Shown in pieces: positions 10,024-59,889 of a stretch of DNA of 64,000 nucleotides. Each line of letters starts with the position of its first letter. Within the stretch, counting starts at the first letter, position 1. Below the pieces are notes generated by a model, which searched no databases, was not told the DNA's origin, and saw nothing but the letters and a program-made list of their open reading frames with translations. Location of the stretch: the NCBI GenBank assembly GCA_965178125.1, contig OZ237754.1:124001-188000 (forward strand). The letters are read 5' to 3'. This DNA is from Bilabrum cf. latius (Eukaryota). The position numbers and the translations under genes are program-made.

Positions 10024-10054
<31 letters not shown>

Positions 10055-13000: not shown

Positions 13001-13276
13001 GTCTGTCGAGAGCTTCGCTCGGCGAGGCGAGACCGGCTTGCTGAACGGAGCTTGGGCACCCATCGACCTTGCCTCGGCCCTACTAATTCTGTTGCAGTAC
13101 CCTCCAGCTGTGGCTAGAACTACAGATGGTGCGGCCCCGCTGAGAGATCGTCGCCGTGGGTGCCCACGGGCCTTCGGCGAAACATTGGCTGCCTTCGGTG
13201 AGGCCCCACCAAAGTCGAGAGCGCGCGGCAGCACGTCGGCGTGTGAAGCAGCCCTCGCCCTGTTCACTGTTGACAT
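5741..13276 (-). CDS. Large (~2500 aa) low-complexity protein with short coiled coils, function unknown
   Basis: Eleven track ORFs (12959, 12476, 12143, 9968, 9257, 8969, 8273, 7640, 6752, 6185, 5741) share one frame; every internal stop is TAG and the terminal stop is TGA. Confidence 0.8.
11063..11146. repeat. (GTGCTG)14 microsatellite encoding a (QH)n tract on the minus strand
   Basis: Perfect hexamer run seen directly. Confidence 0.95.
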
Positions 13277-13459
13277 GATATCAGCAAGCAGAAAGGTTTG
13301 ATTCCATCGCTATTCAGCTGGAGTGTGTCCCACGCCACACCTGCCCACGCCCTTGAGATGATGACGATCCTGCCTGCCAAATTGGCACTGAAAGGACCAC
13401 ACCCATAGCTGCGTGCCAGCTTGGCGTCGTCAAAATAAGTGCATAAATCGTTTTCAAAG

Positions 13460-21739: not shown

Positions 21740-24700
21740 ATGTCAGGAAAGCGATCGAAATAGTGGGTAGCGGGGCGTTCACGCAACGCAGCGGATAGGA
21801 GTCGGAGATTCCCCGACTTGTTTCCAAGGGTGTCTGCTCGTTAGTGGGTTCTTGTGGACGCCCATGACGGCAGTTAGATAGCAGGCTCTCGGTAGAGTAT
21901 TCCCGGGTGTGTTGCATCAATGACGAAGATCGCGGTTGCTCTAGCTGCCGTCAATCTTGCTCACGCACTGCCGGGCCTTCTGACAGACATCGTTTCAGTT
22001 TCTCACGAGGCTGCCCGCACGGTGGGAACCACTGCCCACCTCCGCACCGGGGATCGTCTACCACTTCGAGACCTCCTCGCTGGCCTGCTGCTTCCTTCCG
22101 GAAACGATGCGGGGCGGGCGATAGCAGAGCACTGCGGGGCTCGAGCGCTGGCGGCCGGGACCATCCCCCCAGCCCCTCCGCACACCAGCAAGCACGCCAA
22201 GTCCAAGGCCAAGGCCGTGCATAGCGTCTCTCGAGCTGAGCACAAAGAAGGCCGCCGCGCGCTCGTCCGCATGCTTCAGTCATCCGGTGTGCGGTCCAGC
22301 CGCAGGAGCCCTCGAGGATAGAGACGGCGCAGGCGTGGCGGGGCAAAGACAAAGTCCAAGGCAGGGGCAGGGGCAGGCTGTGTCAGGGGAAGGGGCAAAG
22401 GCACGCGTAGAGCCAGGGCCAGCCCCCGTAAGATCCAAGCACCGGCCCACTGCCACAGCCCGCCCTCCCCGCTGCGACTGCACGGCCCTGCCTCGTCCAC
22501 CAATGGCAAGGAGATGGGCACCACTGCCCGACAGCTGCAGTTCGAAGCAGCAGCACCTGGAGCCTCGCCGGATACTGGACCGCCCGGCGAGGACTCTACA
22601 GAGATCAGCGGGGGCTCCCCTCTCGTACGAGTGCCCAAAGAGCCCGTGGCTCCGGAACATGCTGGCGATCGGCAATGTGATCCGCGACACCGGCAACGAG
22701 AAAGTAGAGTAGTGGGCCGGGGCGGTGTTCCGCTGGACTCGCATGTAGCAGACGCAGCCGCGCATCACGCGATGACGAGCGCGCTGTTGTGTTCCCCGCC
22801 CCGCCCGCTGCGTGCCACCGCTGAGGCTGACGGGTCCTTGGCTATGACGTTCGGGCGGGGCGTGCCGGTGACTGCTGTACAGGAGAACGGCGAGAGCGAG
22901 AGCGAGGACGAGGACGGAATGTCTGCAAATGTTGCTGCTGCTGGTGCTGCTGGTGCTGCCACCAGAACCCAACCGAAACCGAGCAGCGCATCCTCGGGGC
23001 AAGAGCCGCAGCACGGTCAGCCGATAGAAGAACCGGCAACCGCTCCACCGACGGCATGGGCAAGGCTGGGCGCCTACACCGCAGATCGAATGCCGGCACG
23101 GCAGCATGTAGCAGCCGAGAAAAGGCGAGAAGATGGCTCCTCTGCCCGGCCCCCCTCCACCCCACCACGGCGCGAGCCCTCGGGGTTTGGCTTCGGCACG
23201 CCGCCGTCGGCCAAGCAGCTGTCTCCAGTGCCCAGCCAGGCCCCCCTGTGGCAGCAGCTCCTGGCCACCCCTGCGCTCCGGCGGGAATGCAGCCGAGCAT
23301 TCGTCGCCTACATGAACCGAGTGGCCAAGGCATGCGGGTGCACTGGGACCCAGTTCGTGAACCCGCATGGGTTGGACTCCCGACCTGCCACCAAGCACCA
23401 GAGCACGCCTGCGGACATCGCTAGGCTGTGCATGCGAGCCATGCAGTCGGAAGTCATCGCAGGCATCGTGAAGCGCAGGATGCACGGGTGCTGGGTGCAG
23501 CGGAGGGTCCGCGAGGCGAAGCTGGGCGCGCTGGTGCGCGACTGCTCCTGGACTGAGAAGACGAGGAGGCGCTTCGGTGGCGAGGACGAGGCTGCCAGCA
23601 GGGTGCTCGCCGGGGCGGACGGCAGCGCAGGTATCAGCAGCGGCGAGCGGGCTCAACCCAGTGCCGTGCCGCCTAGGTCTCCAGGCGCTATGAGCGGAGG
23701 AGCCCCCACCCCGCTGCCGCCGCGGCGAGTTGCCATGCAGCCGGATCGCAGGGTGTGGTGGCGGCTTCGCTGGCGCAACACCAACAAGCTTCTGGTGGAG
23801 AACCGAGAGGCATCCCCGGCGCACCACGTGCTGGGCTGCAAGACGGGTGTCACGCACGCGGCGGGGCCCTGCCTGTGCTCGGTCTTCGAGCGGGGCGGGC
23901 GCCGTGTGGTCTGCGTGGTGATGCGGTGCGGCAACAAGGACCGGCGGTTCGCGGACTCGAGCGCACTCGTGCGCTGGGCGTGGCACAAGCTGGGAGTGGA
24001 TGGACCGGAGCACAGCCCAGCGGGTCCGCTGGAGGGGCACGGGCCGCTCGCACCACTGTGGGACGAGGACGGCGGCTGGCCCTCGGTTCGAGAAGCGGAG
24101 CCTGCAGCAGCTGCGAGCACAACGCGACAGGGGCAGGCGCAGGGCCAAGGGCATGCAGGTGACTTGTGTGCAGTCGAGGCAGCAGTTGTGCGAGAGCATC
24201 AGGAGCAGGAGCAGGAGCAGGAGGGTGTCCCCGTAGTGTCTGACCCGGCAGTCTCTCAAAATGGTGGTCCCAATGGGTCAGCTAGAGACGCAGTAGATCT
24301 AAAGGAGGAAGAAGGCAGCGATGCCGGTGGGTTTTCATCCGATGGGGAAGGGGCGGAGGACGACGAGGACGACGACAGCGACAGCGACGGTGTTGCTATC
24401 GAAGCCGATGAGGAGGAAAGCCACACGGGCAGCGATTCCGAAATCGTCACTGAGGATGCCGATGCTAGAGGCCGCGCCTGCCTGTCAGGCGATGGGTGGG
24501 CTAGCAATAGCGAGGGCGAAGGCGATTCAGACGAGCCAGACCCGGATTCACCTAGGTGCAGCGTGCCATCATCTAGATCGTCATCGCCTCTCCGCGGCCA
24601 CTTGAAACCGCGGTCGTCTCCTCTTGTCTCGCCGAGACCAGCACCTAAGCAGCAGGCGCCAAATCCAAAACATGCTGCCTAGCAGCTGCGAGCCGGGGGC

Positions 24701-25906
24701 TAGCAGGCCGGCAGTTTTGAGCTGCCGCGAATAGATGGTGCCCTTGTGGATAATGGAGCCACATCCTCGACATCCGGAGTGGGTAACTCTGGTCACAGTG
24801 GCCCCGCGGCACCGTCCTCCCCGCGGCGCGTGGGGTCGCGGCGGGGGTTGCAGCTGCGACGATCCATCGGCAGTGCAGCTTCAGGGGCCAGCGCCGATGC
24901 CGATGCTGGCGGAATTCCGGCGGCAGACGCGCGAAGGTCAAGACCGACCGAGCAGCCGCGGAGGGACTTGCCCTCGCAGACCCGCCCACATGTTTCCATG
25001 CAAGCTCGAGCACTGGAAGGGCCCGCGACAGCAAGGGACTCACGACCGGTGCTGGTGCACGTGAGCAGGCTGCCTCTCGCAGAGCTGAGGACGGGGGACC
25101 AGCATGACCCGCTGAAGCGATCGGTGAGCTTTCACGGCCCACCCAGAGCGCAAGACGGGTATGCTGGCTCGGAGGCACCGGCGGCGTTGCGTGCAGGTTC
25201 TGCACGTGCTTCCAGGAGCGGTCGCCATATTGCATCACAGTGGGCTAGTGGGCATCGCGTGACGAATGCAAGGGGGCGACCTGGTGTGGGCTTGCCCAGC
25301 AGCATGGTGTCCGCTCGAGCTTCAGCACTAGGTGCGGGTCGATCCAGATTGCTAGCTCCCGCCGCAGATGCGGGCGTGGGTGCGGGTGTGAGGCGGGGGG
25401 GCAGCAGCAGCAGCAGCCTGCAGTCGGAGTCAGGGGGTGTGCCTTGGTCCTGGGCTGCTCCTCGAGACATGCAGGCAGTGGGCATGGGGGTATCTCGGGC
25501 TTTCGGAGCACCGGGGCAGGGGCGGGGTACTGACGGCGGGCACAGTCCGGCGAGTGCCAGAGCCGGTGGTGGTGGTGCCGCTGGTCAGGGCACCATTGCA
25601 AACGCGAGTGGGCTAGGTGGTGCGCAGTGGGCAGGCGTGCGGGCGGGATGGGGGCGCGGGATAGCAGTGTAGCAGCAGCAGCAACAGCGCTCTGGGCCGC
25701 AGCCCCGACTCGGTGTCCTCGGCGTGGTGCGCGTGCAGAGGCAGGGTGTGAGCCGCCTCCAGCGGACCAGGAGGCTCGTGGCCTTCAGCCGCAGCAGGAC
25801 ACGGATTGCTGCCGCAGCCTCGAGAACAGATGATGTGCAGTCGGCTGCGGCTAGCGCACGAAGTTTGGGGCCGCCTGGCTTGGTAGCTCGGAGGATGCAC
25901 AGCTGA
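21740..25906 (+). CDS. D-Ala-D-Ala carboxypeptidase (peptidase S11) family protein with large low-complexity insertions; in-frame TAG at 21761, 21842, 21875, 21893, 22319, 24680, 24701, 25670
   Basis: VSAR*WVLVD, ASMTKI (SxxK), LPSGNDA (SxN), MNRVA, FVNPHGLD, NTNKLL, GCKTGVT..AGPCL in one frame; stop TGA. Confidence 0.88.
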
Positions 25907-30703: not shown

Positions 30704-31840
30704 ATGCGTAGCCTAGCGGCGGTTGTTCTTGGATGTGTACTTCTGCATGGCGCTCAGGCAAGAGGTTCGCTCCGGTAGAACCGCAACAGAGCAGCGTCGT
30801 CAGAGAAGCCAATCACGTACTTCACCCGCGGTACCGGCATAAGGGTGCACGAAGATTTGCACGCGTTCAAGTGCGACGCCGGAAAGCTTCTTGAGAGGGA
30901 AGAAGCAAGAACGGATCATCTCCCCGCTGGAGAAATTCTGCCGCAGCGTCGCTGGCTCTACGCGAATGGCATCACGCTGCGCATGCAGCAGGACTGCAAC
31001 CTCGTCATATAGAGGGACGACCAGCCGATCTTCTCCTCCTACACGAGTGAAATAGCCAGTAAGTGCGCGCTTGTTATCACTGGAGACGAGTGCAGTACCC
31101 GGGGCGACCTGGCAATTGTTGACACTGAGACTGGTCAGTACATCTGGCGAGTGGCTTCATCGGTGTTGGGCCCTGGTGCAGACATGCTCAAGCTGCAGAA
31201 GGACGGAAACCTGGTGCTTTTCCTGCAGGGCGGACATATTGTCTGGACTTCGGACACCGCAGGCGCCACGGAGGAGAACAAGGACGACAAAGGCTTCGGC
31301 AAGCGCGCCACCCTGCTCAGCCTTGCGCTGTACCAGGATGACTCGATACATTCTTGCAATGTCCAGGGCATGAAGAAGCGCTATTGGGCAAATATGAAGA
31401 ATTTTCTCGGGCAGGGTTGGATTCTGCACCAAGGCGAGAAGCTGACGGATGACTATGGCTACCAGGGGAGCTTCGATCTCGTGGTGCAACACGACTGCAA
31501 TTTGGTCTTTTACGACTATTGGGGAAAGGTACGGTTCAGCAGCAACACACCCGGCAAGGCCAAGAAGTGCGCGCTCATCATCACCGGAGACGATTGCACC
31601 CACGCCGGCGACCTGGCGCTGATCGATCTCGACACGGGCAAGTACGTATGGGCCGCGCTCACCTCCTTCGCCAGAACTGCCAAGCTCCGCCTCCAGGTCA
31701 CCAAATAGCTGGCATTTATGTCCGAGATGCCGAACGGTGATCATGCAATCTTGTGGACCACTATGGACCGCTATCAGGAGACTGGCCGCAAGTACGTGGG
31801 GCCGCTCGATGGCGACCTCGTTGCCCAGTACATCTTCTGA
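30704..31840 (+). CDS. Secreted protein with two bulb-type (GNA, mannose-binding) lectin domains, 378 aa; TAG at 30776, 31010, 31706
   Basis: Signal peptide MRSLAAVVLGCVLLHGAQA; MQQDCNLVI, LQKDGNLVLF, VQHDCNLVFY (QxDxNxVxY-like); internal repeat CAL.ITGD.C...GDLA.D..TG.Y.W; stop TGA. Confidence 0.88.
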
Positions 31841-38919: not shown

Positions 38920-41900
38920 TCAGGACTGGAGATCCTTCAACAGCTGCTCCTCGTATTGTCGTTGCTGTCGACGGCTCTCGTCAAACGCGACCTCCCTGGC
39001 GGCTAGAAAGGCATCCTGCCGCTAACTCCACCAACGCATGCCCCCCAATGCTTCACGAAGTCTGTACTACGCTGCAAATACGGGACTCATCACTGCTGGA
39101 CGGGCGGCGAGCAGCCGGCACGCCGTGCTGAAAGAGACTGTCCTCGCATCGCTGGCGGAATCGGCAGCTGCAGCCTCTGCGTGCGCGGTCTTGCTGGCTT
39201 CATCAACGGCCTCCTATATTAGAGCATTCACTTCTTGTGCTGCAGGAGCACTCGGCGAGTGCAGAGACCTTGCCAGCACCGCCAGCTCCTCAAGCGCCAC
39301 GACCTGGCTATCACGACCCGGGTCATGACCCGGGTCTAAGCCAGGACCCCCAAGAGGCACCACCCAAGAAGGACCTCTGGATGGGTCACCGTACAGGGTC
39401 CACCCGTCAATAGGCCTGCGCCGCTCGATTCCCGCCGCAGCGGCGCCACCCGCCCGTCTCCCCAGCACCCTCCTGATGAACCGCGGTGCGAGTACCAGCA
39501 GAGCCAGCTGCACCAGGGCTTTGGCAGGCAGCACGCAGAAGGTGCCGACCGTCTGCATGAACTCCGCAAAGGCCATGCCCTTCCTGCCTGATGGCACTGC
39601 CTGATCAGCCGCTCCACCGCCCTGTCTCCCGAGAGTTGCGATGCACTCCACCACGGTGGGTCTCGGCGCCACCTGCGCTGCCAGAAGTGCCTCCCGGATC
39701 GAGACACTCCCATCCATGTCCACGTCCAGCTTGCGGTACCGACCGTACAGCTCCCCTACGGCTTCCTCCGACAAGCCAATGAACTATATCGCGGACTAGG
39801 CGGCACGCAGCTCGCCCTCTGGAGGGCCCTTGCCGGTGTGCCCCAACAGTACCAGCAGCCTTCCGTGCATGGCCCTTGCCCTAGCGCGAAGGGCCTTGGC
39901 CTGGCTCAAAGCAGCGAGGTCGTTGGACCGCTTGAGCAACAAGAGCTCCGCTCTGGCTTGCGAAAAGGCGGCGCTCAGCAGCACGCCCTCCCAGCGCCGA
40001 GCCGCCGCCCTCATCGAGCCCACGGTACTGGGAACGTCAGGACATCCCGCATCAAACGAGAGCCACAGCTGCGCCCCTGGCCTTGTCTTCAGCTCCAGAG
40101 ATCCGTGCACCTTTCTGAACTCGAAGGCCTGGAACAAGTCGATCTGCTTGGCGGATGCGCGCCCGTCCAGGATCCTGAGCCCACGGATCGGCCTGCCTCC
40201 GCTCCCGTGCACAGTGGAGAAATGGGAGTTCGCCGACGTGGCTCGAGCTTGGTCTTCCCCTTTTCCTCTCTCTTCTATTGCCTGGGATCCTTTTCCTGGC
40301 TGCAGTCGATCCGGGCTAAACCACAGCGCCCTATGCCTGCACACGACCGGGTGCCCCGCGAACCTCACGCGAGCCTTTGCGGTGCTGGCAGCTGCCCCGC
40401 GCTCTGCCTCCGTGGAGCAGCCTCGAGGATTCGGTCCGATGCTTAAGGAGGACATGGCCTCCTCTGCAGACAGCGCCGGTTTTGCCCACAGCACAATCGG
40501 ATCCGTGCTCGGGTCTGGATCGTCGGGGCTGGCCGATGATCCGCTCGATCCGGGCCTCTCTTGAGCTCGTATGGCCTGTGCTTGGGCCTGCTGCATCAAT
40601 GCCGCAATGTCAATCGATGCTTCACCAGCGCTTGTAGTCACCCCGCCACGTCCGTGTGCCTTGTCGTCCTGCAATTGCGACACGAGCCCAGTCCCAGAGA
40701 TGGGGAAGTAGCACTCGGTAGGGGCACTCCCGGACAGAGCGCTCTGCTGCACTGCCATGGCCACGCTCTCGGCAAGCCCTGCCGTAATCACCAGGTCTTT
40801 GAACCCAAAGGCGATCTTTTCGTCAACGTTGGCGCCAGCTCTATCCTCTGCAGAGCTTGCAGACCCCCGCCTCACAAGGGTAGAGGAGCTCCCGAGGGGC
40901 AGTGACCCATCATGCATGCTCCGAAGCTTCCAAGGAGCTACGAGCGGCTGCAGGTATCGCTTGAATCCGTCCACATCGACTGTGGTCCCGTCTCCTGCCC
41001 ACGTTAGTACCGTACCGGAGCGTGAGAACACGGGCGGGGAATCCTCAGACTCAGCCTGCTCGCCGTACATGTAAGCATCGCCTGCTCCAGCGCCAGCGGC
41101 AGCGTAGGAATTTTCTATGTGCCACCTTAAGAACCTGCTGTGGTCTGAATCCGTGGCATCATTGTGAGTGGGTCTATCTCGTGCTATACTGTGCCCCGGC
41201 CCTTCAGCTCGCTCCGATGGCTAGGTAGCAGCAGCAAACGGAACCATGGCTAGGCTGGACCTGCGGTTCCTTTTCGTGCCCTCTTTGTGCCAAGGACTTT
41301 CACGCGATGCCTCCACCATTGCGAAAACCTCCTGTCTACCTCCCGAGAACAGTGCATTCGTCGATGGATCCGCACCATGCCCGCCCGCGTGCCCCTACAG
41401 TGCTGCCAAGAGGCTGCCTGGCTTAGACAGGTCTGTTGAGATGGCGGCGGATCCGTTAGGTAGTCCCTCATGACCTCCAGCCGAGGTTCCTGTAGCGACA
41501 GGCCGCTATCGAGCGTCAAGCACACTTCTGGGCAGGGGAACCAGTATGCGTTGATTCACTTCACTCGCGAGCTGCCCTGCCCTTTCTTCCACCATGCCCT
41601 GCGACTCGGCTGCTTGCTCCTTGGCTCGGTTCCGCAGCAGCGTCAGCTTGTCGAGATGTTGAAGCAGTCGGGACTCGTATTCACTGTGAGTGCGCGCGTA
41701 TAGGATGCCCCCGGCAATGCCGGCAAACGGATCCAGCATCTCGTCTCGGATGCCCACTCTGTTCCAGAACACGGGCGAGTCCTCCGCATCCATGGCAGCC
41801 TGAAGGATGAGCACCTTGTTGCGCACCGCCTCTGCCTATGGACCCCTGCGTTCCTTTTCATGCTGCACGATTTCCTTCCCAACCTTAGCTGGGTCTCCGT

Positions 41901-44900
41901 AGTATGGCGATATGCTTGCTAGCATCCGCAATCCGGCGGACGCCTCTTGTCTCAACCAACGAACTTCTGCTTGGGCTTGCCGATGCATCACCCACTTGAC
42001 TCGCCGTGTGTTTTCAGCTTCAAGATCTTGAAATGGTCCTACCCCATCTGCTGCGCCCTATCCCGAACTTCCTTTTGCACGAGGCGCAACATCTGCACCG
42101 CTCTAATCGCCATCATACGAGCGATTCGTTTCATCCCCACCCCTACCGTTGCCCGACAACCTGGCTCGTTTCGCATCTTTCGCCTCTTTGGCCGTCCTGC
42201 GCTTTGCTCTGGCCTCATCAAATTTGCGGAGGGCCACCTACCCCCCAGTCACCTCCTTGTCACGCAGCTGACTCTTCCTGCCACTCGTCCTCAGCGCGAC
42301 CGCCTCCATGGCACGGTGCATCGCCCAAGTGGGCCGCTTCCAGTGAGAGGTTCTGGACGCCACGTGGTAGAAAAAAGTTCTGCCCGAGCCGAATCCAATC
42401 TCCTTGTCATTGTCCACGTGCGCCTCCCAGTACCCAGGGAACATATCCATCGGAAACGATTTCTGTGCCGTCTCGTCGTCGATTGGATTCTCGATGTTCA
42501 GCAAGCTCTTGAGGTGCGCCAGCTTCTCCTACTCCTGCCGAGTGGCTTCATCCTCGGCTGCAATCCGGGAAGCCTCCTTGTCCAGCACGGTCATGCGGCC
42601 CACGGCCTTGTCTCTGTGCTCCAGCAGCTAGACGGCGGCCTCCCTCTCCGCGATGTCCTCCTTGCTGGTGCCCTCCAGCGCGTGCTGCACGTCAGTCTTC
42701 TTGGACTCTGCAGCGTTCGTCTCGAATATGATCCGCGCCCGCTCCAGGGCTGTGACGTCACTCTGCGCCGCTGCGCCGCCAGCCCCCCCGAACTGCAGCG
42801 CGAGCTTCGAGTCCTTCCCGAACAGCTTCTCGAAGTCCCAGTCGCGATCGTCCGTGATCTCGGCATCGTGGCTCTCGGGCAGTCCCCGTAGCGGCATGGG
42901 CGGAGGCCTCGGCGGCTGCTTCACCACCGGCTTGCGCACTAGCTGGAACTTGTCCACTACCCTGTGCCTTGTTCCTTCCATGCCGCGAGTGCGGGAGTGC
43001 TTCTGGTACTCCCGTCGAAGTGCGCGAGCGTGCTTGCGGTCTGCTTTCGTTAATTCTCGCCCTGCAAGACCATCTCGTCCTTGAGCAACGAGCTACTGAA
43101 GGGATTTTGCCGACTCTTTTTGTTGCAATCTGGCCTTCCGCTTCAGGTCTGCCTTTGACCTGCGCCGCTCGGCTGCTGCCTTGCGAGCGCTGGTCCTTCG
43201 TTCGAGCAGCAGCTGCTACTAGTTCTTGCTCGCTGCCTTGCGCTGCATCTCGCGCTAATATTCGCCGTCAGATGACGTCTCTCCTTCATCGCTGACGTAC
43301 TCCTCTGGTTGGCTCCTCTGCACCTGCATCCCAAACCGTGCGGCTGTGTGCCTGCCTGGCACCTCACTCGATGACCGTCGCGTGCTAGCACCTGAAGCCG
43401 GGCCCTTGCCTCTAGACGAACCCCTCGACACCGCGGAGTCGTCACTCACTTGAAAGCTAACAGTTCGATGCAAGCTGGACCGGCTCACCGCTCGAATCTA
43501 TTGGAGGCTAGAGTCCACGTTGACATCGCCGGAGGAGTACCGAGCCACGCTCTGTTGAGAGCCTTGTACAACGGCTGAGTCGCTCAGGGATTGATCGAAG
43601 AGGCCGATGTTGCTTGTTTGGCTCTGCATTTTGCGCGTCTAGTCCTACTCGCTATCTTCTTCACTGCCGCTATCAACGTGACGCGCGGTGCCAAAATCCA
43701 TTCGAACTCCAAACAGCCCGTACACCACCCCGAACCGTCGCTGCGGCTCGTACCAGAACCCAGGATTCCCAATGTCCTCGCCATCACCAGTGGCGGAGTA
43801 GTACTCGGTATTACGCAAAGAGACATCTGCGCGTGCTGGGCGAAATCTGGCGACACGATTTCGACGCTACGATTCCATGCTGCCTCTGGACTTGCGAGAC
43901 GTGCCCCGAGAGCGTAGTTGTGTCGGGCTGGGGCTCCTGCTTCGGCCGCGGCCCATGCCCCGGCTCGAGTTTTGGCTGCTTCTCGTTCGCCTCTGCCGCT
44001 TGGTCAGCACTAGAGCACACCCTCGTTTCTCGATCGCCGCCAGACGTGCCGCCAACAGCCGGCCCACTGCATCCTCCTTCTCTTGCTCCCGGCTCCGCTG
44101 CTGGAGCACCTCGACAAGTTTCTGCTCGTCCTTCGATCGAGTGGTAGCACGGTTGGAGGGATTTATTGACGCAACCAAGATGCGGTTCTGCTAGTCTGAA
44201 TGCTACTGCAGCAGTCTCCTGCGGCGATTGGCCCTATCCGCAGCACGTCTGGAGCGAAGCTCCTCCCTGTTCCCACCAGCAATCTGGTCGCCTATTTCGT
44301 CGTCTTCATCGTCAGTGTCCGCATCGTCCTCAAGCATCTGCTTCTCTTTCAGGTCATCCTCAACTGCCCTTGATGCTAGCTGTGCATAGCCGGACCTTCC
44401 GCTGCTGCCAGGTGGCCGATCCTGTTCTGACCTGATGAGTCGCAGCTGCTTCTCCATGTCCTCGTAAACGACCGGCTGCGAGATCCGCCCCAGCTACACC
44501 CCACCTTCAGTGACGGGATACTTTAGCAGTGCACCGGAATCGTTCAATGTCTGCATCCCGCTGGCCTGCAAGATGTGCTCGGCAACCTGGGCCAACATGG
44601 ACACTGGGTGTGGAGGCCGCTGGTTATGCTGGGCCTGCACCCTGCTGATGACGTACCGATTGTTGCGACGGAATCGAGCTGCCTCTAGCTCCATGCGCAC
44701 TCTTGTATACTCACTCAAGGCGCGTCTGTCATCCTAAGAGTGCCGCATAGTCAGCCGGACGAGCCCGCGCAATTGCTCAGCGCACCGTAGCAGCCTCTTG
44801 CCCTCAGTCACGCAGACCTGGCAGATCAACCTGCAGAGGCTCAGTGCTCGTTTCATGGCAGCCCTAGCCTCAACAAGAGCCGAGGTCATATATTCATGCT

Positions 44901-47900
44901 TGCGACGTGCCTCAACCACGGTCGTGTCCTCTCGAGTGGCACTAGGACCCGCATCCTGTCCAGCGGCAAGTGCGGCGGCCCGCCGGTCTTGCTGTGCCCG
45001 CTGCACGCGCAGCCTTATCTCGCTGTGCTATTGAGCGGATGCCTCCACGGCTTGCTGTGCAAGCCGGACTGCCTGTGCAGCGTGCGCAACCTGGTCGATG
45101 CCGCGCCCCAGCAACACTTCTGCCGTTCTCCCCTGCGATTGGATGCCCTGCAGAAGCGGGCCCTGGGCCTGGGCTCCGAGCAGCTCGAAGCTTGTTCCCG
45201 ATGCCCTGTCGCTGGCTTCCTCTTGCTGAATGGCGTCGATTCGCATCTCCAGGAGCTCGATTCGAGAGACCAGGCGGAGTCTCTGGTACTCTGGCTCGAG
45301 GTCGCTGCTCTTTGGCATGGACCGCAGCACCACCCGCATTACGGCGAGGGCGCGCTGGCACCTACGCCTCTCGACCGCAAGGGTGGCCGCCTTTGCTGCC
45401 TCGTGCTGCATGGCGTCTGACAGCTCCATCTTGATCTCCTCAGAAACTATGGCGGCCGCGCGCTGACGCATGGCCGACACGGCTTCGAGACACGAGAGGA
45501 TTCCGTTCATGGATCGACGCTAGTCTCGCTGCTCGCTGTGCTCTTGCAACTCGCCCATTCCCATCTGACCAGAAGCAAACTCGGCTATCTGGTCTCGACT
45601 CGCGCTGAGTTCTGATACGGAATGCAGCAGTGCCCGTGCCGGCTGTAATTGAGCATCTTCCTGGGGCTCGCGAGCGTCAGAGGACCCTGTCGGAGTGTAC
45701 CCTGACACTGGGTAGGGCGTACCGAGAGACTTGTTTGCTTCTCGCAATGGGATAGACCGGAGCCCAATCAGGTCTTCTTCGACCTTCGCCAGGCTAGATT
45801 CCACCATCCTGCGCAGAGGGTCGAGTCCACTTTGGCTGCCCCCTGCAAGCCTCTCGATGGTGTCGAACAGTCTGTCTGACAGTAGAGCGACCTTACGTTC
45901 GATTCCAGCGTCATTGTTCGATTGTTCTTTGTCGTCGAGTCCGCCGGAAAGTGCCCGCACATGGCTGTTGCGTGCAACGCGTGGCTGGAGGCGCAAGCAC
46001 TGCATCTGCACGGTGCGTATTGTCTCACGTGCGTCCTGCAACGAGCTAGAAACGAGCAGCACGAGCTCAAGGGGGTCCAAGCTCGCCTTGACACGGCCAT
46101 GGGCCCATTCAACGATCGCCTCCGCCCTGTCAAGTCCCGCATGTACTCGTAGCATGGCAGCAACGGCCATTGCCTGTCGCATGCGTGCCACCGACTGGGT
46201 CCGAAGGATCGCCCACTGCGCCATCCTGTTGGCTGTCGTACCCCCGGCATGCACGAACAGGGCGCTGATAGAAGCAACGTATGCCTCCAGCCTGCTTTCC
46301 TCCTTGGCTGCAGAGAGCGCGACATGAGCCGAGGACGCGATGGTGAGGATCTTGTACCTCTGGAAGGCCTTCTCGATCCGGCGCACCATCCCTCGACGCT
46401 TGCGAGTCTCCCTGGCGGACACGAGCCGGTGTTGGGCGGCCTCTTGCAGCTCTTTTTGCCTCTCAAACTGCGGGAGGGTGTCCTGCAGCGACCTTCGAAA
46501 GGCACTCACCATGCTTCTCGGCTGCAGCTCTTGGTTCATCTGGACCAGAAGGTGGTCCGTGCGGCCCAGAGGGAACAGCATCGATGTCTTGGAGGAGCGG
46601 GTACTCTCCAGCCCGGTTGCCATCAAGAACTCACCCACGGCAGATACGTCCGCTTTTCTCCTGTACAGGTAAGACTTGAACCTGCGCGGGCCCTTGCTGC
46701 GAACCTGGCCGATTGCTCCCTTTTTTTCGAGGATCGCCAGCGCCGACCTGTCTCGCTGCCCCAGGGCCTCCTCCTTCGATGCCCTCTCGGCTGCCTCCAG
46801 CTCGAGCGCGGCTTCCTCTCCCAACAGCTCCCTCAGGCTGGAGTTCCTGGCGTGTGCCGCCCTACTTTCCTCTTGTTTCTTCATGGCGCGCATGGCGGCG
46901 TGCCGGGACTCGGGACGGGTCTGAAACGCCATCACGTGCTCAATCTTAGGAAGGCCGAACGGATTGGAGTTGGACACCACCATGGTTTCCTTTCTGCTGG
47001 TGGCGAACCGGAGCTTGGGTGCCTGAGCATCTCTGCTGCCGGGACGATTGCTCGTGAAGTGGTCGCTGCCGGGTGTGCCTGGTACATGCTTCTGGCTGGA
47101 TCTCGGCTTGTAGTACTTAATGGTTCTGTCGGACACTTCGAAGTCTTGTCTGCGAAAAGGAGTCTTGCCGACTAGAATGGGGTCGATGCTAGCATGCAGT
47201 TGCGCCTGCTGCGAATGGATCCTGCTGCACTGGAACTAGTGCCGACCCAGCTCCATCAAGTGCCGCATGTCGTCTGGATCTCTCGCTGGTTGTCGCGGCC
47301 CATCACGCCCAATCATCACAGGTAGCCGCCGCTCTGGCTGCTGGGACTCTTTGTACGAAGGAAAGTGCCAGGTGGCTGGCAGTGCTTCGCCCTCATCAAC
47401 TTCTCTTCGCATCGGGACAAGTTCGCGTGACTGCGGACCTGCCTTGGACGCCTCGATCGCAACGGCCCTGGCCTTGCCGAGGGAGACTTGCCTCGTCTGA
47501 GCCTCCTTCCTGTATGCCATCTCACGCTGAATCGCAGCCGTGACTCCGATTGTGGTTGCAGACCCACCTTCTACCCACAGCTTGGCCTGACTACTGGATG
47601 CCAGGTGGAATCGGCCGTCTGGACCCTTGACGAGTGCGCTCGGCGTGCTTGGGCGGAGCCTTGCCTGTGCCTGCTGCATCCTAGCTCTGGATCCTGCGCT
47701 CTGCTGGCTGTCGCTGCTGCCTGGTTTTGACCTAGGGTAGCCCAGTAAGGCCCTTGCGTGCCTCTAAACATCTAGATTTGCCTCCATGCCATCCATCGCA
47801 CTTGCAAGCATGCCTCTTGGAGCATCCGATTCCGCCGATTGCAGAGGGAATGCTTCGTACCTGCGCTCTATGACCTCAGGCCCACTCTCTGGGAGCACCA

Positions 47901-50900
47901 CCTGCACCTTCAATCGGCCCCTCACGTCGTACTTTGGACCCAGCCCCATGCTTCGCTTGATGTGCCGGTCGTCTTCCCAGCGACCCATCAGCGCGGCAAT
48001 CCTCAGTCGCTCAAATCCGATGCGTCGGAAGCACGTGTGGCTAGACGACAGCATCATAGACGCTGCTAGCCGCTTGATCTGCGCCTCTCGCCGGGCCTCG
48101 ATTGCGCTGCGAATCCTACGCTCGCACCGTTTCAGGAACAGGCATCTGCGCCACCACAACTGCAACACCCTCGCTCGGTCGTTGCTGCGCCACCAGAGGA
48201 ACTCGCCCATCATACGAAACGCCTTGACGATAACTCGAGCAGCCCTGTCCACTCGTGCCCTCCGCTTCACCTCGACTCTCCAAGCGATGGTGTAAACGAG
48301 CCGCTTCTGCTTGCGCAGGCCGTGCAAGATGAGCCCTCGCATCTTATTCGCTGCGATTGCCTCCTGCGTCAGCTGCTGCTTCAGCGCCCTGCTTTCCCGC
48401 TCCAGACAAGCGCCCGGTATGGGCTAGAAGCCCAGAGCTGCAAACATTGGCGCTGGTAGGCTGCCGTCTGTTCTGGAACGCCCTCCTTGGGGTGCTCTGA
48501 TACTTGGAGCCTGAACAGTTCGAGCCACGACCTCCACGTTGGAGCGTCGAAGTGATGCTGTGCGAACGCAATCCATTCCAATTTGCGTGCATCCAGAAAC
48601 GTCAAGGCTGACTAAGTGTGGTGCCATCTCAAGCACAGCCTCCAGCTGCACAGGTTCCAAGGTCTTGCAGGCCCGCAGTGCGAGGCGGGCGAGAAATGGG
48701 AAGGCAATCTCAGTCTTGCTCTCGCTGTTGTTGGATTGCCTCGCCAGAGCCAGCTGTACGGCAGACTCAATCCTTGGCAGGTACTCCTCTTCATCCTCTT
48801 CCGCCTTGTCCCCCGCCTCCTCCTGCTCCTTCTCCTGCTAGTCCATGCCTATCTCAGGACTTGCCGCCAGGTTACGTCCCACCCTACTTGCATGCTTGTC
48901 TCGCGTGATATGCACGGACGCATCGGATTCGTCGTGCTATGTAGTTTGATCCATGGGGCACCTACCAGACAGATCCAGTTCCCGAAGCAACGGGAGACAC
49001 AGCCCAATAGCAGCCAAGTAGCTTCCAAAATCGCCCCTGTACGATTCGTCACCTGGTTCCACGCTAGGATCGGAAGCACCACCGCGTCTAGAACGGCGCC
49101 TGCTACCCTTCTTGTCTTCGGACGGACCACCTGCAGCCGCCCCCGCCTCCATCACCCGCAACATGCGGCACTGGCTCGCGAGGTAGAGGATTCCCCCGAG
49201 CGTGACTCTTCTCGAACACTGCCCCATCCTGATCCGCTGCAGGCCTCCCAGTGACTCGGCCACGCGGCAAATGCCAGCATCCGTCACCGAGGTGCATCCA
49301 GTGATGTCCAGTTCTTCGATGCCGGGGCAGGTCTCGCAGATCATACCCAGCCCATCGTCATCTAGCTGCCGCAAGTGCGCCCCGTGGAATACCCTGAAGT
49401 TAGCCATGGTCAGCCGCAGAGCCTATGCCAAGGCGCTGGTGAGTCGCACGCAGCCGCTCACCCTCAGGTCTCGCAGATCTTCGCAGTCTAGCACCAGGGA
49501 AGACACGTCGCTGTCTTCCACGCCAGCGCACCCGCTCAGATTGATCGCCGTCAGATTAATCCACACTGGCCTCAGGTGGTCAAGCCGGCGGAGCCTCTTC
49601 TCGTCTTTGTCCACCATGCGAGCAGGTGGCCGACCCGATGGGTAGTGCCGCACCTTAGCCTGGGTCTACGAATTGCTGCTGCGGCGATTCTTGCCTTGCC
49701 TCATCGAGTGGCTGAGCTGCGAGATGCTGGATCCCGCGGGCTGGTCCTCGATCGGTCGCGGGACCACAGGGCCATCCATGAGCAGTCCCGTCCTGCGAGC
49801 GATGTGCTCGGCTGCAGCCATGTCAAACAGAGGGGATTGCAGCCCGTCGCAGTACTCCAGCCTCATTTCCCGCAGATTCGAGCAGAATAGAGCGATTGCA
49901 GTCGTACTAACGGCAGTCAGTCGATGCGCATGCGCCGCTCGGATGGACCGTATGGCAGGGCTGTTTCTGCACAGCGACACGAGGACCTCATCCGTGACCC
50001 CAGCGGCGTAGCTCATGTCTATTTCTAGTAGAGGTGACTGCACCTCAACTGCGTATGGCCCAATGTGAGATGCTTGCAACGGCTGCTTGCCTGCGCCTGG
50101 CCCGAACGTACCGATTGGGCGGGGAGACTCGAATGTGTCCAGGATTCGGTCCGCGAACGGCAGCCTCCCCACTGGCTGCACTCCCAGCCCGCTTGCTCCT
50201 TCGATCCCAGCCGTGGCCATGCGCGCATCAGCCACGTGAGCGATAATGGGGGTCTAAGCTGACGATGTTGCACCGGAGGCTGGATCAGGTGCTTCAGGGC
50301 CCTTTGATTCGTGGCCGGTACGGCCAGTCTGCAGCTCCTGTTGCTAACTCTCACTGCGGGTAGCCAGCGCCAGCGCTCCGATTGGCAAGTATCCTCTGCC
50401 TAGGCCCCTGCAGGACAACCGCCGCAAGTCTACCATTTCCATCATGGCGATTACCAGCCCTCGGTTGGAGATCTTGGGGCACCATGACACGTCTAGCGTG
50501 TGCATCCTCTCTGTGGAGTCAGCCAGCGACTGCATGCTTCTGTCCGTCAGCCGGTTGCACCCCTCTACTCGGAGGCTCTGCAGGTCTGTACACCCCTTGG
50601 CAATGCAATCTAGAGCTGTATCTGTCAGATTGAGACAGTTTCGAAGGTCTAGAGTCACCACGTGCCTCATGTGGTCGATCCTGGGAAGCAGGCTGGCTGT
50701 TGTCTCGGTCACTGCCTGGCACCCCTCCACTCGTAGATGCCTGAGAGATGGCATGCTGCTCGCGAGCTGCAGCAGGGATCGCTCCGTCTATACCCTCCCC
50801 TGCTGCTCCCCGAGGATGATGCTCCTCGTCCTCGTGCGCGCGAGTGCTTCCACCATTGCAGGCACGGACTGCGGGCTCAGCCTCCAGCCCCTGCAGTCGA

Positions 50901-52422
50901 GCGTGGAAGAACCCTCCCCGATCCCCGCCTCTGGGTCGAGCAGCGCGGCATGCGTGCGCCCCGACTCTGCCAGGGACCTGAGCCTCGAGCTGAACGAGGG
51001 CTCCACTCCTCGATGGGGCGAAATAGAGGAGTATTCACCCCAGCGAGCCCCGCAACCGCACGCGCACAGCAGCTCCCCTGGCTCCCCCGTTGACCCTGCC
51101 ACTGCCAGGGCCTCCCGCTTGGCCTCGTGCCACCACTCCAGCGACATGGCGAGCTCTTCTTCTCGGCCACGATCCGTTCCGTCCGGGCTTGACCGAGCGA
51201 TTCGAATCTGCGCTGCCTGTGGAACCACCCCGTCGCCCGCCGTCGCCGTTACCACGCAAGGGTCCAGCCCCGCGAGGATGCTTCCGCTTGGACTCCTCAT
51301 CGCAGCCATGGTCAACCCGTCCAAACCGCCTCCCAGTGCACCCATCTCAAGCTCTCGCTGCTAGTGTCGCTGCTGCACCAACCGTTGCACTGCATTGCTG
51401 TACGGCACCGCGATTCTCGCCATATCCAGGAGGAATTCCGACCGCAGCAGCAGCTTGGATTGGGTCACCGCGCGGCCCCTGGCTCGCATCACCGCCCCGA
51501 GAGCCTCTTTGCCCCATAGTTTTGATTCCCGCGGGAACGATACCCACTGCAAAAATCTCTGTGCCCCGTTCCATGCGCCCTGTTCACCCCCCTGCTGCCG
51601 CATGACCTGCCCCAGCTCGGTTCCAGAGAGGTCGTTCCGGATGGTGCTCATTGCCTGGCGCAACGTGTCCGCTGCACCCCCTTGCCTCGCGTCTGGCTCG
51701 AACCGAGTGAGCAGAGCAGGGCTCGGATTCAGGTACAGCCGCTGGTAGGATCTGCTGGCGAGCTCAGCGGGGTATGGGCGGAGGGGCCAGACTCTCCGTG
51801 GGGCCGCGGGGTCCAGCGGGACTGGCATGGCGGGGGGACGATATCCTCCTAACAATGGGCCAATCGTGCCACTTGATTCTATCTGGCTTTTTCTGGGGGC
51901 ATGCCCTGAACTATGATGCGTTCCTGCGGCAGAGCCATTCCTGCTGCCGGCCGCCACTGCCAGCGATGATTGGGCAAGCCTGCCTCGTCTGTCGTGCACC
52001 GAGAGCTTGCCGCCTCCCTCAATACCGAAGGGAAGGCTTGGCAAGCATATTGCATTGTGCTAGCTTTCAACGAACGAAACGGAGCATCGCCCGTGATCGG
52101 CTGCACCTGCTGTGGCACCAATCGGAACGCGAGCACTGCTGGCCTCGCCGGCTTGCGGCTTCGGAGCCAGTGCGGTGAGATCGCGTGATGTCTCTGGGGC
52201 AATAAAACTGACTCCTCTCAACACACGTACAGTGTTTATGGAGGAGCCACTGCGCTTCCCAGCGAAGATACCCGCAGGAGCACGCTCACTTGCCTTGCCC
52301 GAGGACTCGCTCTGGTGCTCTCTGCTTCTGAACCCAGGATAGGCTATTGCTTGCTGGCCCGGCCGCTATCTGAGAGGGCTCTCTCTTATGATTCGAACTT
52401 CATCAGGCTCGGCTTGCGCCAT
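38920..52422 (-). CDS. Giant intronless ~4500-aa protein: cysteine-type LRRs, IQ-like motifs, coiled coils, WW domain, C-terminal EF-hand/calcineurin-B-like region
   Basis: More than 20 track ORFs share one frame; ~40 internal stops, all TAG, with no TAA/TGA between ATG 52422 and TGA 38920; motifs LDLRNCLNLTD, LDITGCTSVTD, WEAHVD..GRTFFYH..TSHWKRP, LDVDMDGSVS. Confidence 0.88.
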
Positions 52423-52683
52423 AATCTACCCTCTGTCCTTGAAGCGCCCATCCCTAGTTTCCGTTAGAGTCGACTGAGCCAAACGCGAGGATTTTCTTGC
52501 AATTGCAAGGTCTTGACGCGCAGCTAACCGAGTCTATTTTGGTCCATTTCGATTAGAGATTGATTTCATTCAGTTTGCGCAGTACTGTGCCTGAACGCTC
52601 ACTTCGGGCAGGTCTAATGTCATATTTGCTCGCAACAAAGTGCGAGCATGCATGCTGCTCGCCTCACTTTTCTGCAATCAGAC

Positions 52684-56540: not shown

Positions 56541-57851
56541 TCAGAACAGCTCCCGCCCACCCCCGAGCATGTTTCCAGGCGTTCTCACGAGCACAATGTC
56601 CGCCCCGTACTGGATCCAGGCGGGGAGAACCGCAGGGACAGGCTCGTGATCGCCAGGGCCTGGCTTGCTGGCCGCATGTGACTCGCTGCTGCTCTTCCCC
56701 TCAATGCCCCCGCTCGTGCCACCAGAGGCTGGTTCCGAGGAAACCCGGCCGCTAACCACATCCTTACATATTTCTTGTTCCAGTGCGGCCTCCGTGTGAG
56801 CTGGAGCCCCCGACGTGCCCGGGACGGAGCCTTCACCCAACCCCGCTTGTGCTGGACTCGCCGCCTTCGCACCTGCTTCCCCGTGCCCGGGCCCATGCCC
56901 CGCCCCGCCGCTTCCGACCCCAGCTGTAAATTCCATCGTCCAAGGGATGGAGAGTCCGCCGCTGGAACCACCGCCCGGTGCTCCGCGCTCCTCCCCACCG
57001 TGGCCCCGAGCAGATGCTCCAGCAGTGCCGCCACGGTGCTCGCCTCCTCTCGTGGGGCTGCCCGGGGCTGCCAGCGCAAGCCGTGGCAGTGGTGCCACCG
57101 TCGGGATTACGAAAGGGGATATAGTCGTCACTGTAGCATCCACCAGCCCGGCCCCAGGTGCCGACCCACCCGGCTTCATGCCGCCACTGGAGCTGGCAGT
57201 GGCAACCGCGGCGTGTTGGTGCTCGCTGAGCAGTCCCGCGATGACGCGAGCCCCGCCTTCCACCATGAGCCGCTTCACTCCGATGGACGAAACGGCTGAT
57301 AGAATTGACTACCATGACAACGTGTGACGCTAGGGAACGCCGGTGCTGGATTCCTTCGGCGGGCTTGAACCTTTGATGCCGATGACAGCCACGCCACGTT
57401 CGCTGATCGCCTTGGCGCGAGCAGACCCGAGCTCCGAGGCTAGTACTGCCGCAGAGCATAGTAAAACAGGTTTTCGTGCAGGATCAGATAGTGATTTGAT
57501 CGATAAGGGGATCCTTAGGTGGGGATCTAGTATAATTGGCCTTGGACTAGGGCCGCGGACTAGCCTCGTGGTCAGCGATGGATTGTCGTTGACAGCCGTC
57601 CCTACTCCTACCAGAATACCATCATGCCAAGCACGGAGACTATGCGTCATTTTCCAAGACTCTCTCCCCGAAATAGGCACTGCTTTGCCGGACTTCATTG
57701 CAATCGATCCGTCCAGCGACTGCGCCCAAGTCAGAGTGACAAAGGGCCTCTCGTTGGTCCTTGATCTGGAGACGCCATCCCCATGCAAGCTGGTAAGTAG
57801 TTCAATGACGCTGTCTCGGGTTCCCATTAGCCAGTGCAATGAATGTTTCAT
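56541..57851 (-). CDS. RibD C-terminal / Rib7-like pyrimidine reductase (riboflavin biosynthesis); TAG at 57330 and 57309
   Basis: RPFVTLTWAQSLDGSIA, THSLRAWHDGILVGVGT..DNPSL, then through two TAGs to GVKRLMVEGGARVI; stop TGA. Confidence 0.9.
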
Positions 57852-57947
57852 GGAACGATCACGATTAGTTGCCAGCTCCGGATCGATCCAAACCAAGCCA
57901 CGTACGTTGCTGAAAGATCTGCAGTTACACGCTTCAGTAACCTCATT

Positions 57948-59889
57948 ATGGTATATGTGGATGCGCGTATTGCGGTGCAGGGAGGTTGGATCAATCCGAC
58001 CGTCAGGGCATGGGTAAGAAGACAATCACTGTGCCAAGTTTTGGTTGTTGTATCGAACTATTGTATCGTCCTCCCCATTGCAACGATTAAACGCGCCGCA
58101 GATGCTAGCAACACGTCCCTGGAGTTTTCCGGCGTCCTTTATTGCGGTCCTGCTTGCTGTTGGTGTCGCTAGTCGCTGCGGGGAGGAATGGGATTTCGTC
58201 GGCGTGGCTGCTGCGGCTACTGGCGGCACCCTGGTGCACGCAGCAGCGAACCTCATCAACACATACTATGATTATACTAGCGGTGTGGATCAAAAGGACG
58301 ATGCGGACGACAGAACGCTAGTGGACGGCGTCCTCAAGCCCGAGGACGTGATGCGGATGGCGCAGGCATTCCTGGCCGGAGCCCTCGCTTGCATCGCGTA
58401 CGTGGTGCAGCAGCACGCGGAAGTTCTCCCTCTCGCTGCCGTTGGGATCATCCTTGCCGTGGGATACACGGCGGCTCCCATCCAGCTGAAGCACCTGGGG
58501 CTCGGTGAGGCCACGATTTTCGCGTGCTTTGGTCCCCTGCTCTTCGCGGGAGCCTCGATTGCAGCCACGGGTACCGTCACGGCAGAGGTGCTGCTGGCGT
58601 CAGCGGCCTCCGGCATAGCCACTGTGGCCATTCTGCACGCCAACAACGCCCGGGATGTGGACGCGGACCGCCGCGCGGGTGCCTTCACCCTGGCCCAGAC
58701 GTGCGGGTTCGGAGGGAACCTGTTCGCGTACATCGTGATGATCGTGGGGGCGTTCGGGCTCGGTGCACTGACCATCGGAGCCGCTGTATCGGCTGGTGAG
58801 ACCAGGCAGACCATGGCTGAGACGGCCCAGGAGGTGGTAGAGAACATTGTGGGCGACGGTTCTAGGGGCGGCGGCCTGCTCTCCGTTCTCATGCTTCAGA
58901 GCCACCCCATGGTCGAGGCAGCCATGGGCGTGCCTCATGCCGCCATGCAGGGCGCCGCACGGCTGTCGCAGTTCCTCGCGGTGATCCTGTCGGACAGCAA
59001 CGTCAGCGTGGAGGGCATCGCATCCAGGCGGCTCAACGACGGAGACGTCTCCATCCTGTTCGGGCTCGGTGGGCTTGCTGTGTGCTCTCACTGGGGGGTC
59101 CGTCTACTGCTGCGGTTCTCTAGCAAGAAGCTCTTCTTCCTGCCCTAGCAGACTGCCCAGTTTGGGCTTCTGTTCGGGGCCGGCCTCGGGCTCGGGGTGC
59201 TGCCTCCTCGCGCGGCCATCCGCGGGCTGCTCGCCATCCTCTTCCTGCTGGGAGGCATCAACAACCTCGTCATGTGGCTGCACTCCCGCGAGCTCGTCCA
59301 CTCCAAGCTCGCCCTCGTCGTGCAGGGCATCCCGGCCCCGGCCTCCCACGCCGCCGCGCTGCTCACCAGCCTCGCCCAGATCGCAGCTTCCTCTTGCTTC
59401 CTCCTCGGTTTCTATGAGAAGCCAGCCGCGGTGGCTCTGGCGCTCTTCCTCGTGGCAGTGACACCCACCGTGCACAATTTCTGGGACGCAAACGTGCCCG
59501 GTGACCCGGAGTGGGGATCGCAGGCGAGCAGTGACAAGGTCGAAGCGACGCCTGCTGAGGCTGCATCCAACGGCACCAAGGGCAAGTCCAAGGGTAAGAG
59601 CAAGGGCAGGGGTAGGGCCGGGTCTCGTGCCCGCACTCGTAGGCAGTCGTCGGGCGACGACGAGAGTGAAAGCAAAAGCGAGAGCGAGGGGGGCAACAGC
59701 GACGATGAGGCAGAAGCGGCCCCGGGCGCGCAGTCGCACAGCGGCGGCGAGGGCAGCAGCACCGTCCGAGGCCTGGATGGCGCGGGTCCCGTGCCCACGT
59801 TCTTGCAGGCCTTCGACAACGAGTTCGTGCATTTCTGGAAGAACCTCGGCATGCTGGGTGGGCTGCTGGCATTCGTTGCCTTCGCATGA
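57948..59889 (+). CDS. UbiA prenyltransferase (UBIAD1/MenA-like) fused to a DoxX-family domain; intron 58014-58101; TAG at 59146
   Basis: RPWSF, NLINTYYDY..GVD..DDRTLVD, LHANNARD..D; LP*QTAQ; then FLVAVTPTVHNFW...FWKNLGMLGGLL; stop TGA. Confidence 0.85.

Follow-up and report, generated by a model that had tools for sequence, protein, structure and literature searches.

Evidence for nuclear UAG as a sense codon, most likely for glutamine, in a giant gene of a GC-rich eukaryotic genome

The analyzed DNA is a stretch of 64,000 nucleotides from the Bilabrum cf. latius assembly (GCA_965178125.1; contig OZ237754.1, positions 124,001 to 188,000), herein referred to as the window; all coordinates below are counted from its first letter. 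On its minus strand lies a reading frame of 13.6 kb (38920..52569) in which TAG is the only internal stop. The frame, which holds about 4,500 codons, is a single real gene, herein referred to as the giant gene. Very probably, UAG is a sense codon in this nuclear genome, most likely for glutamine (Gln), UAA and UGA terminate translation, and the whole frame is a single intronless translated gene. An earlier sequence-only reading of the window had taken the TAG codons for recoding and not for decay. This is supported by the TAG-only stop content over 13.6 kb, coding-type codon usage, uninterrupted orthologues, a relative in the same TAG-only state, and TAG codons inside the domains of neighboring genes.

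The frame is closed upstream by an in-frame TGA (52570..52572, minus strand) and stays open down to its terminal TGA (38920..38922, minus strand), which is followed by an AT-richer 3' flank. The longest open reading frame (ORF), 38920-52569, comprises 4,549 codons with 43 in-frame TAG codons, no TAA, and no internal TGA. Between 38920 and 52422, the same frame contains 41 TAG codons, and its sole other stop is the terminal TGA; the 13.5-kb TAG-only frame that had been described from the letters alone is therefore confirmed, on the minus strand, the description having named no strand. Stops of all three types were found in the other two minus frames of this region (99 TGA, 34 TAG, and 13 TAA in one; 84 TGA, 38 TAG, and 13 TAA in the other). 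TAG accounts for 72 of these 281 stops (0.256), and with this share the probability that 43 stops out of 43 are TAG by chance is ~4e-26. No comparable frame was found on the plus strand, each frame of which has 34-61 TGA codons in the region. Under the standard code, the giant frame is split into 44 pieces. All 24 stop-to-stop segments of at least 60 codons are terminated by TAG, and these TAGs span 39214-52060; the earlier statement that the long ORFs here all end in TAG is correct, but they number 24 and not twenty.

Codon usage was evaluated with a model for which 10 other ORFs from the window served as the training set. The log-likelihood was highest in the giant frame in all 21 bins of 216 codons, and it was positive in 20 of them. 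The only non-positive bin is the first one, with a probable 5' untranslated region and a low-complexity N-terminus. The GC content at codon positions 1, 2, and 3 of the giant gene is 0.64, 0.51, and 0.67, respectively.

For homologues, the 1,200 amino acids (aa) at the C-terminus of the giant protein were used in an exhaustive HMMER search, which matched 11 proteins. A word-indexed homology search, with the whole length and at near lengths, had given no matches; this null result reflects a limit of sensitivity, since P0005 and P0014 were picked up by the exhaustive search. P0005, a metagenomic "hypothetical protein" of 3,710 aa, aligns by its residues 308-1390 with residues 465-1572 of the giant protein (31% identity, E 4e-134). 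Among the matches listed, further collinear high-scoring segment pairs (HSPs) with P0005 lie at residues 2919-2970, 3351-3426, and 4477-4526 of the giant protein. P0013, a cluster mate of P0005, is likewise 3,710 aa long. P0014, a metagenomic cluster mate of P0008, is an M-initiated and stop-free protein of 4,214 aa that spans the whole architecture. Overall MAFFT identity is 26-28%. P0005 and P0014 are uninterrupted and collinear with the giant protein; in relatives, a single ORF without interruption thus codes for this protein. The check for full-length orthologues that had been proposed together with the sequence-only reading speaks in its favor, P0005 and P0014 not being split at the TAG positions. 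Two fragments originate from closer relatives and are broken off at stops: P0006 (50 aa, 81% identity) ends one residue before TAG codon 3578 of the giant gene, and P0003 (51 aa, 92% identity) ends at a CAA codon of the giant gene, Gln 3637.

The same gene was found in a diverged relative. The metagenome locus L001, 8,064 nt (GC content 57%) of the contig that encodes the fragments P0002 and P0004, has one frame with 29 TAG codons and neither TAA nor TGA over its entire 2,688 codons. Each of the remaining five frames contains 29-68 TGA codons. The translation of L001 aligns with the giant protein in a single HSP, covering residues 1445-3962 at 35.6% identity. Thus, a second, clearly diverged organism has the same gene, likewise with TAG as its only in-frame stop. 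In the aligned part, none of the 29 TAG positions of L001 is shared with the giant gene, and TAG codons therefore turn over fast.

The use of TAG as an internal codon extends to other genes of the window, which has a GC content of 63.5% and is gene-dense and intron-poor. In total, 15 ORFs (17,246 codons) were examined, and they contain 95 in-frame TAG codons and no internal TAA or TGA. The ends of 14 ORFs include 11 TGA and 3 TAA codons, one TGA (61271) being probably intronic. No ORF needs TAG as its end, the ORFs having been drawn with TAG as sense and the C-terminus having been compared with homologues for the giant gene only. Given the CAA/CAG ratio of 64/164, about 17 TAA codons would be expected in the giant gene beside its 43 TAG codons, and none was observed; TAA is therefore not a sense codon. 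TAG makes up 0.5-0.95% of the codons in the giant gene and in the remaining long ORFs of low complexity. A single TAG was found in each of the LMF1, GH65, and UbiA-DoxX ORFs, and none in the RRM protein, the two RTC-domain ORFs, and Pelota. Some TAG codons are located inside recognizable domains. In the Peptidase S11 (DD-carboxypeptidase-like) gene (21740..25906, plus strand; 8 TAG codons; Pfam E 1.5e-26), TAG codons 35, 46, and 52 lie within the conserved catalytic domain, upstream of SxxK, and are spanned by PDB alignments. In the RibD_C reductase gene (56541..58025, minus strand), both TAG codons (232 and 239) fall into the domain, which covers residues 94-268 by Pfam and is also aligned to PDB chains.

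Sequencing runs were compared across positions 38000-53500; X5 and X6 are two runs of one study, and X1 is a DNA run. In X5, the giant gene is represented by two contigs, 38959-49600 (10,642 nt, depth 21) and 49579-52559 (3,005 nt, depth 13), with no gaps and no other letters. The neighboring X5 contigs end at 38816 (depth 232) and begin at 52686 (depth 135). In X6, contigs end at 38950 for the giant gene and at 38873 for the convergent neighbor gene, the X5 contig of this neighbor ending at the 38816 already given. Among the loose ends listed, none lies at these contig borders (38874-38959). In the DNA run X1, everything is covered by one 45-kb contig with a flat depth of 13. X5 and X6 are RNA-like, because their contigs break at either border of the gene, where the depth steps up or down ten-fold, and our guess from these breaks and steps is that both are RNA. 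If this is the case, the giant gene is one intronless transcription unit, and its TAG codons are unedited in RNA. Separate transcripts ending at the TAG codons, which would have told against one gene, were not seen: the contigs, RNA by the same guess, run across the TAGs and have no ends there. In X7, a run from a third study with another organism label, three identical pieces of the 5' part of the giant gene (50122-52322) were found at depth 2; the organism was therefore also present in another sample.

A probable start and the stop of the translated region can be named. The X5 contig reaches 52559 and thereby excludes the ATG at 52567-52569, so that the ATG at 52420..52422 (minus strand; residue 50 of the longest ORF), with which the frame of the sequence-only reading has its upper limit, is the likelier start. 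At the other end, a conserved C-terminal helix is positioned after the last TAG (codon 4516), and translation must therefore reach the TGA at 38920.

As to the amino acid inserted at TAG, Gln is the probable one. TAG was found within repeat tracts built on CAG, at 4 places distributed over 3 genes. In the neighboring 2,553-codon ORF 5741..13402 (minus strand), which has 18 in-frame TAG codons, one tract reads CAG TAG TAG CAG CAG CAG CAG, and a (CAG GCA)n tract contains three TAG GCA units, which may go back to a single mutation that was then amplified. In the other tracts, TAG precedes five CAG codons, or the sequence is TAG GGG TAG GGC, where the proteins as a set abound in Gln-Gly repeats. 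A CAG run in the Peptidase S11 gene is headed by a TAG (codon 1311). With a substitution table built from the giant gene/L001 alignment itself, the 47 residues opposite TAGs (Q7, A6, R5, P5, E5, S4, and others) gave a likelihood of -1.0 for Gln, -7.8 for Ser, -9.6 for His, -14.1 for Glu, -17.9 for Tyr, and -41 for Leu. Sums of BLOSUM62 scores over four orthologues placed Gln at the top under 2 of 3 filters. Tyr and Leu were rejected overall in this test, with sums of -62 to -158. In the profile of neighboring residues (±3) built on the window, Gln ranked first at +4.5, with Leu next at -2.3. The column of TAG codon 4501 holds Gln in P0005, P0010, P0011, P0012, and P0021, as well as in P0009 by eye, and Leu in P0014. 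The P0003 fragment, with its 92% identity, ends at a Gln codon of the giant gene and is counted as support for Gln. NCBI translation table 15 (TAG = Gln), which had been suggested for translating the frame, is accordingly the best reading of these data, but it falls short of proof, with glutamate (Glu) as a possible though quite unlikely meaning.

A number of observations weigh against the proposed reading in one or another of its parts, and those on residue identity are at the same time what an alternative can draw on in which UAG is sense but stands for another amino acid, mainly Glu and then Ser, Tyr, or Leu. Under the strictest BLOSUM62 filter, Glu (20) exceeds Gln (17). The columns of TAG codons 4262 and 4516 are mostly acidic in homologues, TAG codon 3444 aligns to Glu in P0002/L001, and, in all, giant-gene TAGs stand opposite Glu of L001 at 5 of 22 sites. 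TAG codon 103 of the bulb-type lectin ORF (31010..31012, plus strand) stands where a sugar-binding motif that is intact in all else, and which we take to be Q-x-D-x-N-x-V-x-Y, has its conserved Tyr; Y is found there in PDB chain 1bwu_Q, so this one site fits Tyr better than Gln. The neighbor profile computed on L001 alone leaves Gln outside the top 8 and does not replicate the result for the window. The TAGs of the Peptidase_S11 and RibD domains fall into variable columns of the PDB alignments and are uninformative on residue identity. Nor was a tRNA with anticodon CUA found in the 64-kb window, where the sole tRNA is tRNA-Arg(TCT). Moreover, the absence of TAG ends among the ORFs is partly built in, as they were drawn with TAG as sense. 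Regarding expression, no run holding the sequence is recorded as RNA, X5 being labeled "probably DNA," and the X5 and X6 contigs end at 38959 and 38950, 28-37 nt short of the TGA, so that the 3' end of the mRNA is unseen.

Another amino acid at UAG is nevertheless unlikely. Nuclear codes with UAG as Ser, Leu, or Glu are in print, as described in the relevant sections of PMC11687900. Here, the substitution likelihood falls below that of Gln by 13 nats for Glu, 7 for Ser, 17 for Tyr, and 40 for Leu. The Glu residues seen opposite giant-gene TAGs have no counterpart in the opposite direction, where L001 TAGs face Glu of the giant protein at 0 of 25 sites and Gln at 4. Among 106 residues aligned to TAGs in the BLOSUM62 test, there are only 2 Tyr and 1 Phe. 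The TAGs within CAG repeats and the mostly Gln column of codon 4501 likewise argue against this alternative. Pyrrolysine was also set aside as a meaning of UAG: its use is a bacterial and archaeal system, and the gene content of the window (LMF1, RRM, Pelota, and RTC-domain/Rcl1-like genes) is eukaryotic.

It would be possible for UAG to be ambiguous and context-dependent, sense inside genes and stop near mRNA 3' ends, in which case the TAG at 39022-39024 could be the end of the giant protein. The ends of the RNA-like X5 and X6 contigs before the TGA at 38920 would agree with this, and the ORF calling used cannot detect TAG-ended genes. However, contig ends cannot mark true RNA ends and are poor evidence for them, and the segment after codon 4516 is conserved in P0005, P0010-P0012, and P0021, with WW-x-x-x-x-x-F-x-x-A-R in common. 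Furthermore, all ORFs reach a TGA or TAA, and the TAGs nearest to the terminal stop precede it by 33 codons in the giant gene and by only 3 codons in ORF 37148-38767. Context-dependent UAG is accordingly very unlikely. Still less probable is the removal of the TAGs under the standard code, as introns or by U-to-C editing. No support for it was found, though the window has at least one probable intron (61137-61270, in the RTC-domain gene). The RNA-like contigs are collinear with the DNA, without internal joints and, in X5, without a single other letter, and the 43 TAGs are single codons in coding-type sequence, many of them in blocks aligned with orthologues. Decay into a pseudogene, or several short genes lined up separately, as the 44 pieces under the standard code might suggest, can practically be dismissed, with no TAA, TGA, or frameshift over 13.6 kb (at the chance probability given above), orthologues that are single long proteins, and the TAG-only pattern recurring in a relative at 36% identity.

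Read with UAG as sense, the giant gene encodes a protein with several recognizable parts. A conserved Cys-rich motif, C-x-C-G-C-G-x-R-W-G, is encoded at 51037..51066 (this and the following features are on the minus strand) and is also present in P0005 and P0014. It is followed by several FBXL-type cysteine-containing blocks of leucine-rich repeats (LRRs) at 48550..50892 (residues about 560-1340), found by both PDB search and Pfam. The PDB matches include FBXL2 (E 2.3e-19, in 3 stretches), FBXL17 (E 1.9e-13), and SKP2 (E 5e-6), and Pfam LRR_6 reaches 25 bits against a cut-off of 23.4. These proteins (PDB 6o60_C, 8uah_B, and 1fqv_A, respectively) have the cysteine-containing LRR solenoid blocks in common with the giant protein, whereas the latter has no detected F-box, is ~10 times larger, and has WW and EF-hand modules in addition. 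No F-box family was found at E <=0.01 in P0001, P0005, or P0014, and for this reason the giant protein was not filed as FBXL. A basic helical, IQ-like region (48040..48387) lies within the longest and best-scoring BLASTP alignment to P0005; Pfam IQ was found in P0005 only, at 18.8 bits against a cut-off of 20.3. A WW-like domain (42325..42435, residues 3379-3415) is conserved in P0005, P0008, and P0002. Pfam WW matches it below threshold (E 3.8e-4; 20.9 bits against a cut-off of 26.9), with 24.6 bits in the relative P0017.

The last ~300 residues form a conserved helical domain (38923..39822), supported by alignment A2 and by the predicted local distance difference test (pLDDT) of an AlphaFold2 model; free-standing homologues of 245-331 aa exist. 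Within it, a canonical-looking EF-hand-like loop, D-x-D-x-D-G, is encoded at 39691-39726 (residues 4282-4293). Pfam EF-hand_1 matched P0015 and P0010 alone, with about 17.5 bits where the cut-off is 25.4. As to the putative coiled coil of the sequence-only reading, long helices appear at low confidence in the AlphaFold2 model, which covers the last 1,200 aa; its pLDDT is mostly 60-90 in the C-terminal helical domain and below 50 over most of the rest. Its mean pLDDT of 48.9 is to be added to the unfavorable points above. Foldseek gave no match of this model in PDB at E <=0.001, the weak ones to calcineurin-B/CHP having E >=0.08. A dystrophin-type WW + EF-hand + ZZ module was considered and rejected: the WW-like domain and the EF-hand loop are about 870 residues apart, and no ZZ match was found. 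Of the modules listed in the sequence-only reading, the LRRs are well supported by the FBXL2 match, whereas WW, IQ, and EF-hand have only sub-threshold matches.

The family is small, unannotated, and lineage-restricted. A profile search with alignment A2 of the C-terminal domain gave two proteins only. An ESM Atlas search with P0015 led to EF-hand clusters (leads with a score of 0.80), whose commonest taxa, Oomycota or Chlorophyta, are unusable for taxonomy. The architecture, which had been called unrecognized, is indeed unannotated, but it is not unique, being shared by this small conserved family. From its domains, the giant protein may possibly be a protein-protein scaffold, and perhaps a Ca2+-responsive one; this function is doubtful, and the weakness of the domain matches behind it likewise belongs with the unfavorable points.

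The following route from gene to protein can be proposed. The giant gene would be transcribed as one mRNA of ~13.6 kb, and translation through all 41-43 UAGs would yield a protein of about 4,500 residues. From the N- to the C-terminus, this would contain a disordered N-terminus, the Cys-rich motif, the FBXL-type LRR blocks, and the IQ-like basic region, then a long helical and disordered spacer, the WW-like domain, and the C-terminal helical domain with its EF-hand-like loop. The UAGs would presumably be decoded by a tRNA with anticodon CUA, a derivative of tRNA-Gln, in the presence of an eRF1 that no longer recognizes UAG. New TAG codons may stem for the most part from C-to-T mutation of CAG where constraint is weak. 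The product would then act in protein-protein contacts as the possible scaffold described above.

The gene content of the window is eukaryotic. It includes genes for a lipase maturation factor (LMF1), an RRM protein, Pelota, a split RTC-domain (Rcl1-like) protein, a GH65 hydrolase, a MenA-like UbiA-DoxX fusion, a bulb-type lectin (30704-31840, plus strand), and the Peptidase S11 homologue. In the latter, which occurs here in a eukaryote, the N- and C-terminal domain parts (residues 29-132 and 674-746) are split by a low-complexity insert of ~540 residues. The UbiA prenyltransferase-DoxX fusion (58045-59889, plus strand) has its one TAG, codon 368, between the domains, upstream of DoxX. The gene of the RNA 3'-terminal phosphate cyclase family (Rcl1-like; 60084-62245, minus strand) consists of two ORFs, 61271-62245 and 60084-61136. 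The gap between them (61137-61270) is a probable intron and the only intron candidate among the 15 ORFs examined. The gene for tRNA-Arg(TCT) at 29889-29962 (plus strand) is the only RNA gene found in the window. An eRF1 gene is missing from the window; what resembles one, at 62552-64000, is the gene for Pelota (NCBIfam TIGR00111, E 4e-45). A CAG/CAA-rich microsatellite (38094-38134) in the 3' part of ORF 37148-38767 has many unrelated contigs and an inflated depth in all four runs.

The code proposed here would be a further case of a known type, in which UAG alone is sense, from a GC-rich, compact, and nearly intronless genome. In the fornicate Iotanema spirale, UAG encodes Gln, UAA and UGA are stops, and UAA is the primary one, according to the passages of Panek et al., 2017 (PMC5304391) on its code. 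UAG alone is reassigned there, as is proposed here, probably to the same residue; both keep UAA as a stop, and I. spirale is not a ciliate. The window differs in its GC content of 63.5%, its gene density, and TGA as the main terminator (11 of 14), and there is no evidence of relatedness. UAG is also read as Gln, with UAA not reassigned, in Protocruzia tuzeti and two phyllopharyngean ciliate lineages, as the corresponding section of PMC11687900 has it. The code variant proposed here (NCBI table 15 type) is the same. The window is unlike these ciliates in its 63.5% GC, its long low-complexity proteins rich in Ala, Gly, and Ser, and its kilobase-scale intronless genes. Ciliate genomes are usually AT-rich.

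In the rhizarian exLh, UAG is given as Leu (in the part of PMC5304391 that treats it), and in Scotinosphaera as Ser (in the part of PMC11687900 that does so). By these accounts, the meanings of UAG and UAA are decoupled there as they are here; in contrast, Leu is rejected in the present case (-41 nats), and Ser is less likely than Gln (-7.8 vs. -1.0). Codes with UAR as Gln are described for Ulvophyceae, hexamitin diplomonads, Streblomastix, and Amoeboaphelidium in the portion of PMC11687900 devoted to them. A stop was captured for Gln there, as is probable here, whereas here no internal TAA was found in 17,246 codons, and 3 ORFs end with TAA. No report of a GC-rich eukaryote with UAG as Gln was found in a full-text literature search, the coverage of which is incomplete.

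Apparently, the organism is part of a clade whose members have diverged deeply. We tentatively suggest that it could quite possibly form, together with the sources of L001 and of P0003/P0006, an unreported deep clade of GC-rich, intron-poor protists that reassigned UAG alone to Gln independently. If so, the stop-free relatives P0005 and P0014 beside this clade would provide a comparative system for the decoupling of UAG and UAA in a GC-rich genome. Nuclear codes in which UAG and UAA differ in meaning are rare, a handful of lineages being named in the pertinent text of PMC11687900; such split codes indicate that UAG and UAA can be distinguished by the translation machinery. With diverged relatives having the trait in common, and others in which the gene is stop-free, it would be easier to test whether such codes arise through mutation pressure, near-cognate reading by tRNA-Gln, or eRF1 changes. 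Genes of this kind are shattered by standard-code gene callers, and the proteins of close relatives are public as 50-aa fragments. The giant gene itself would offer 43 sites for proteomic confirmation of the reassignment, in a genome that is not ciliate-like.

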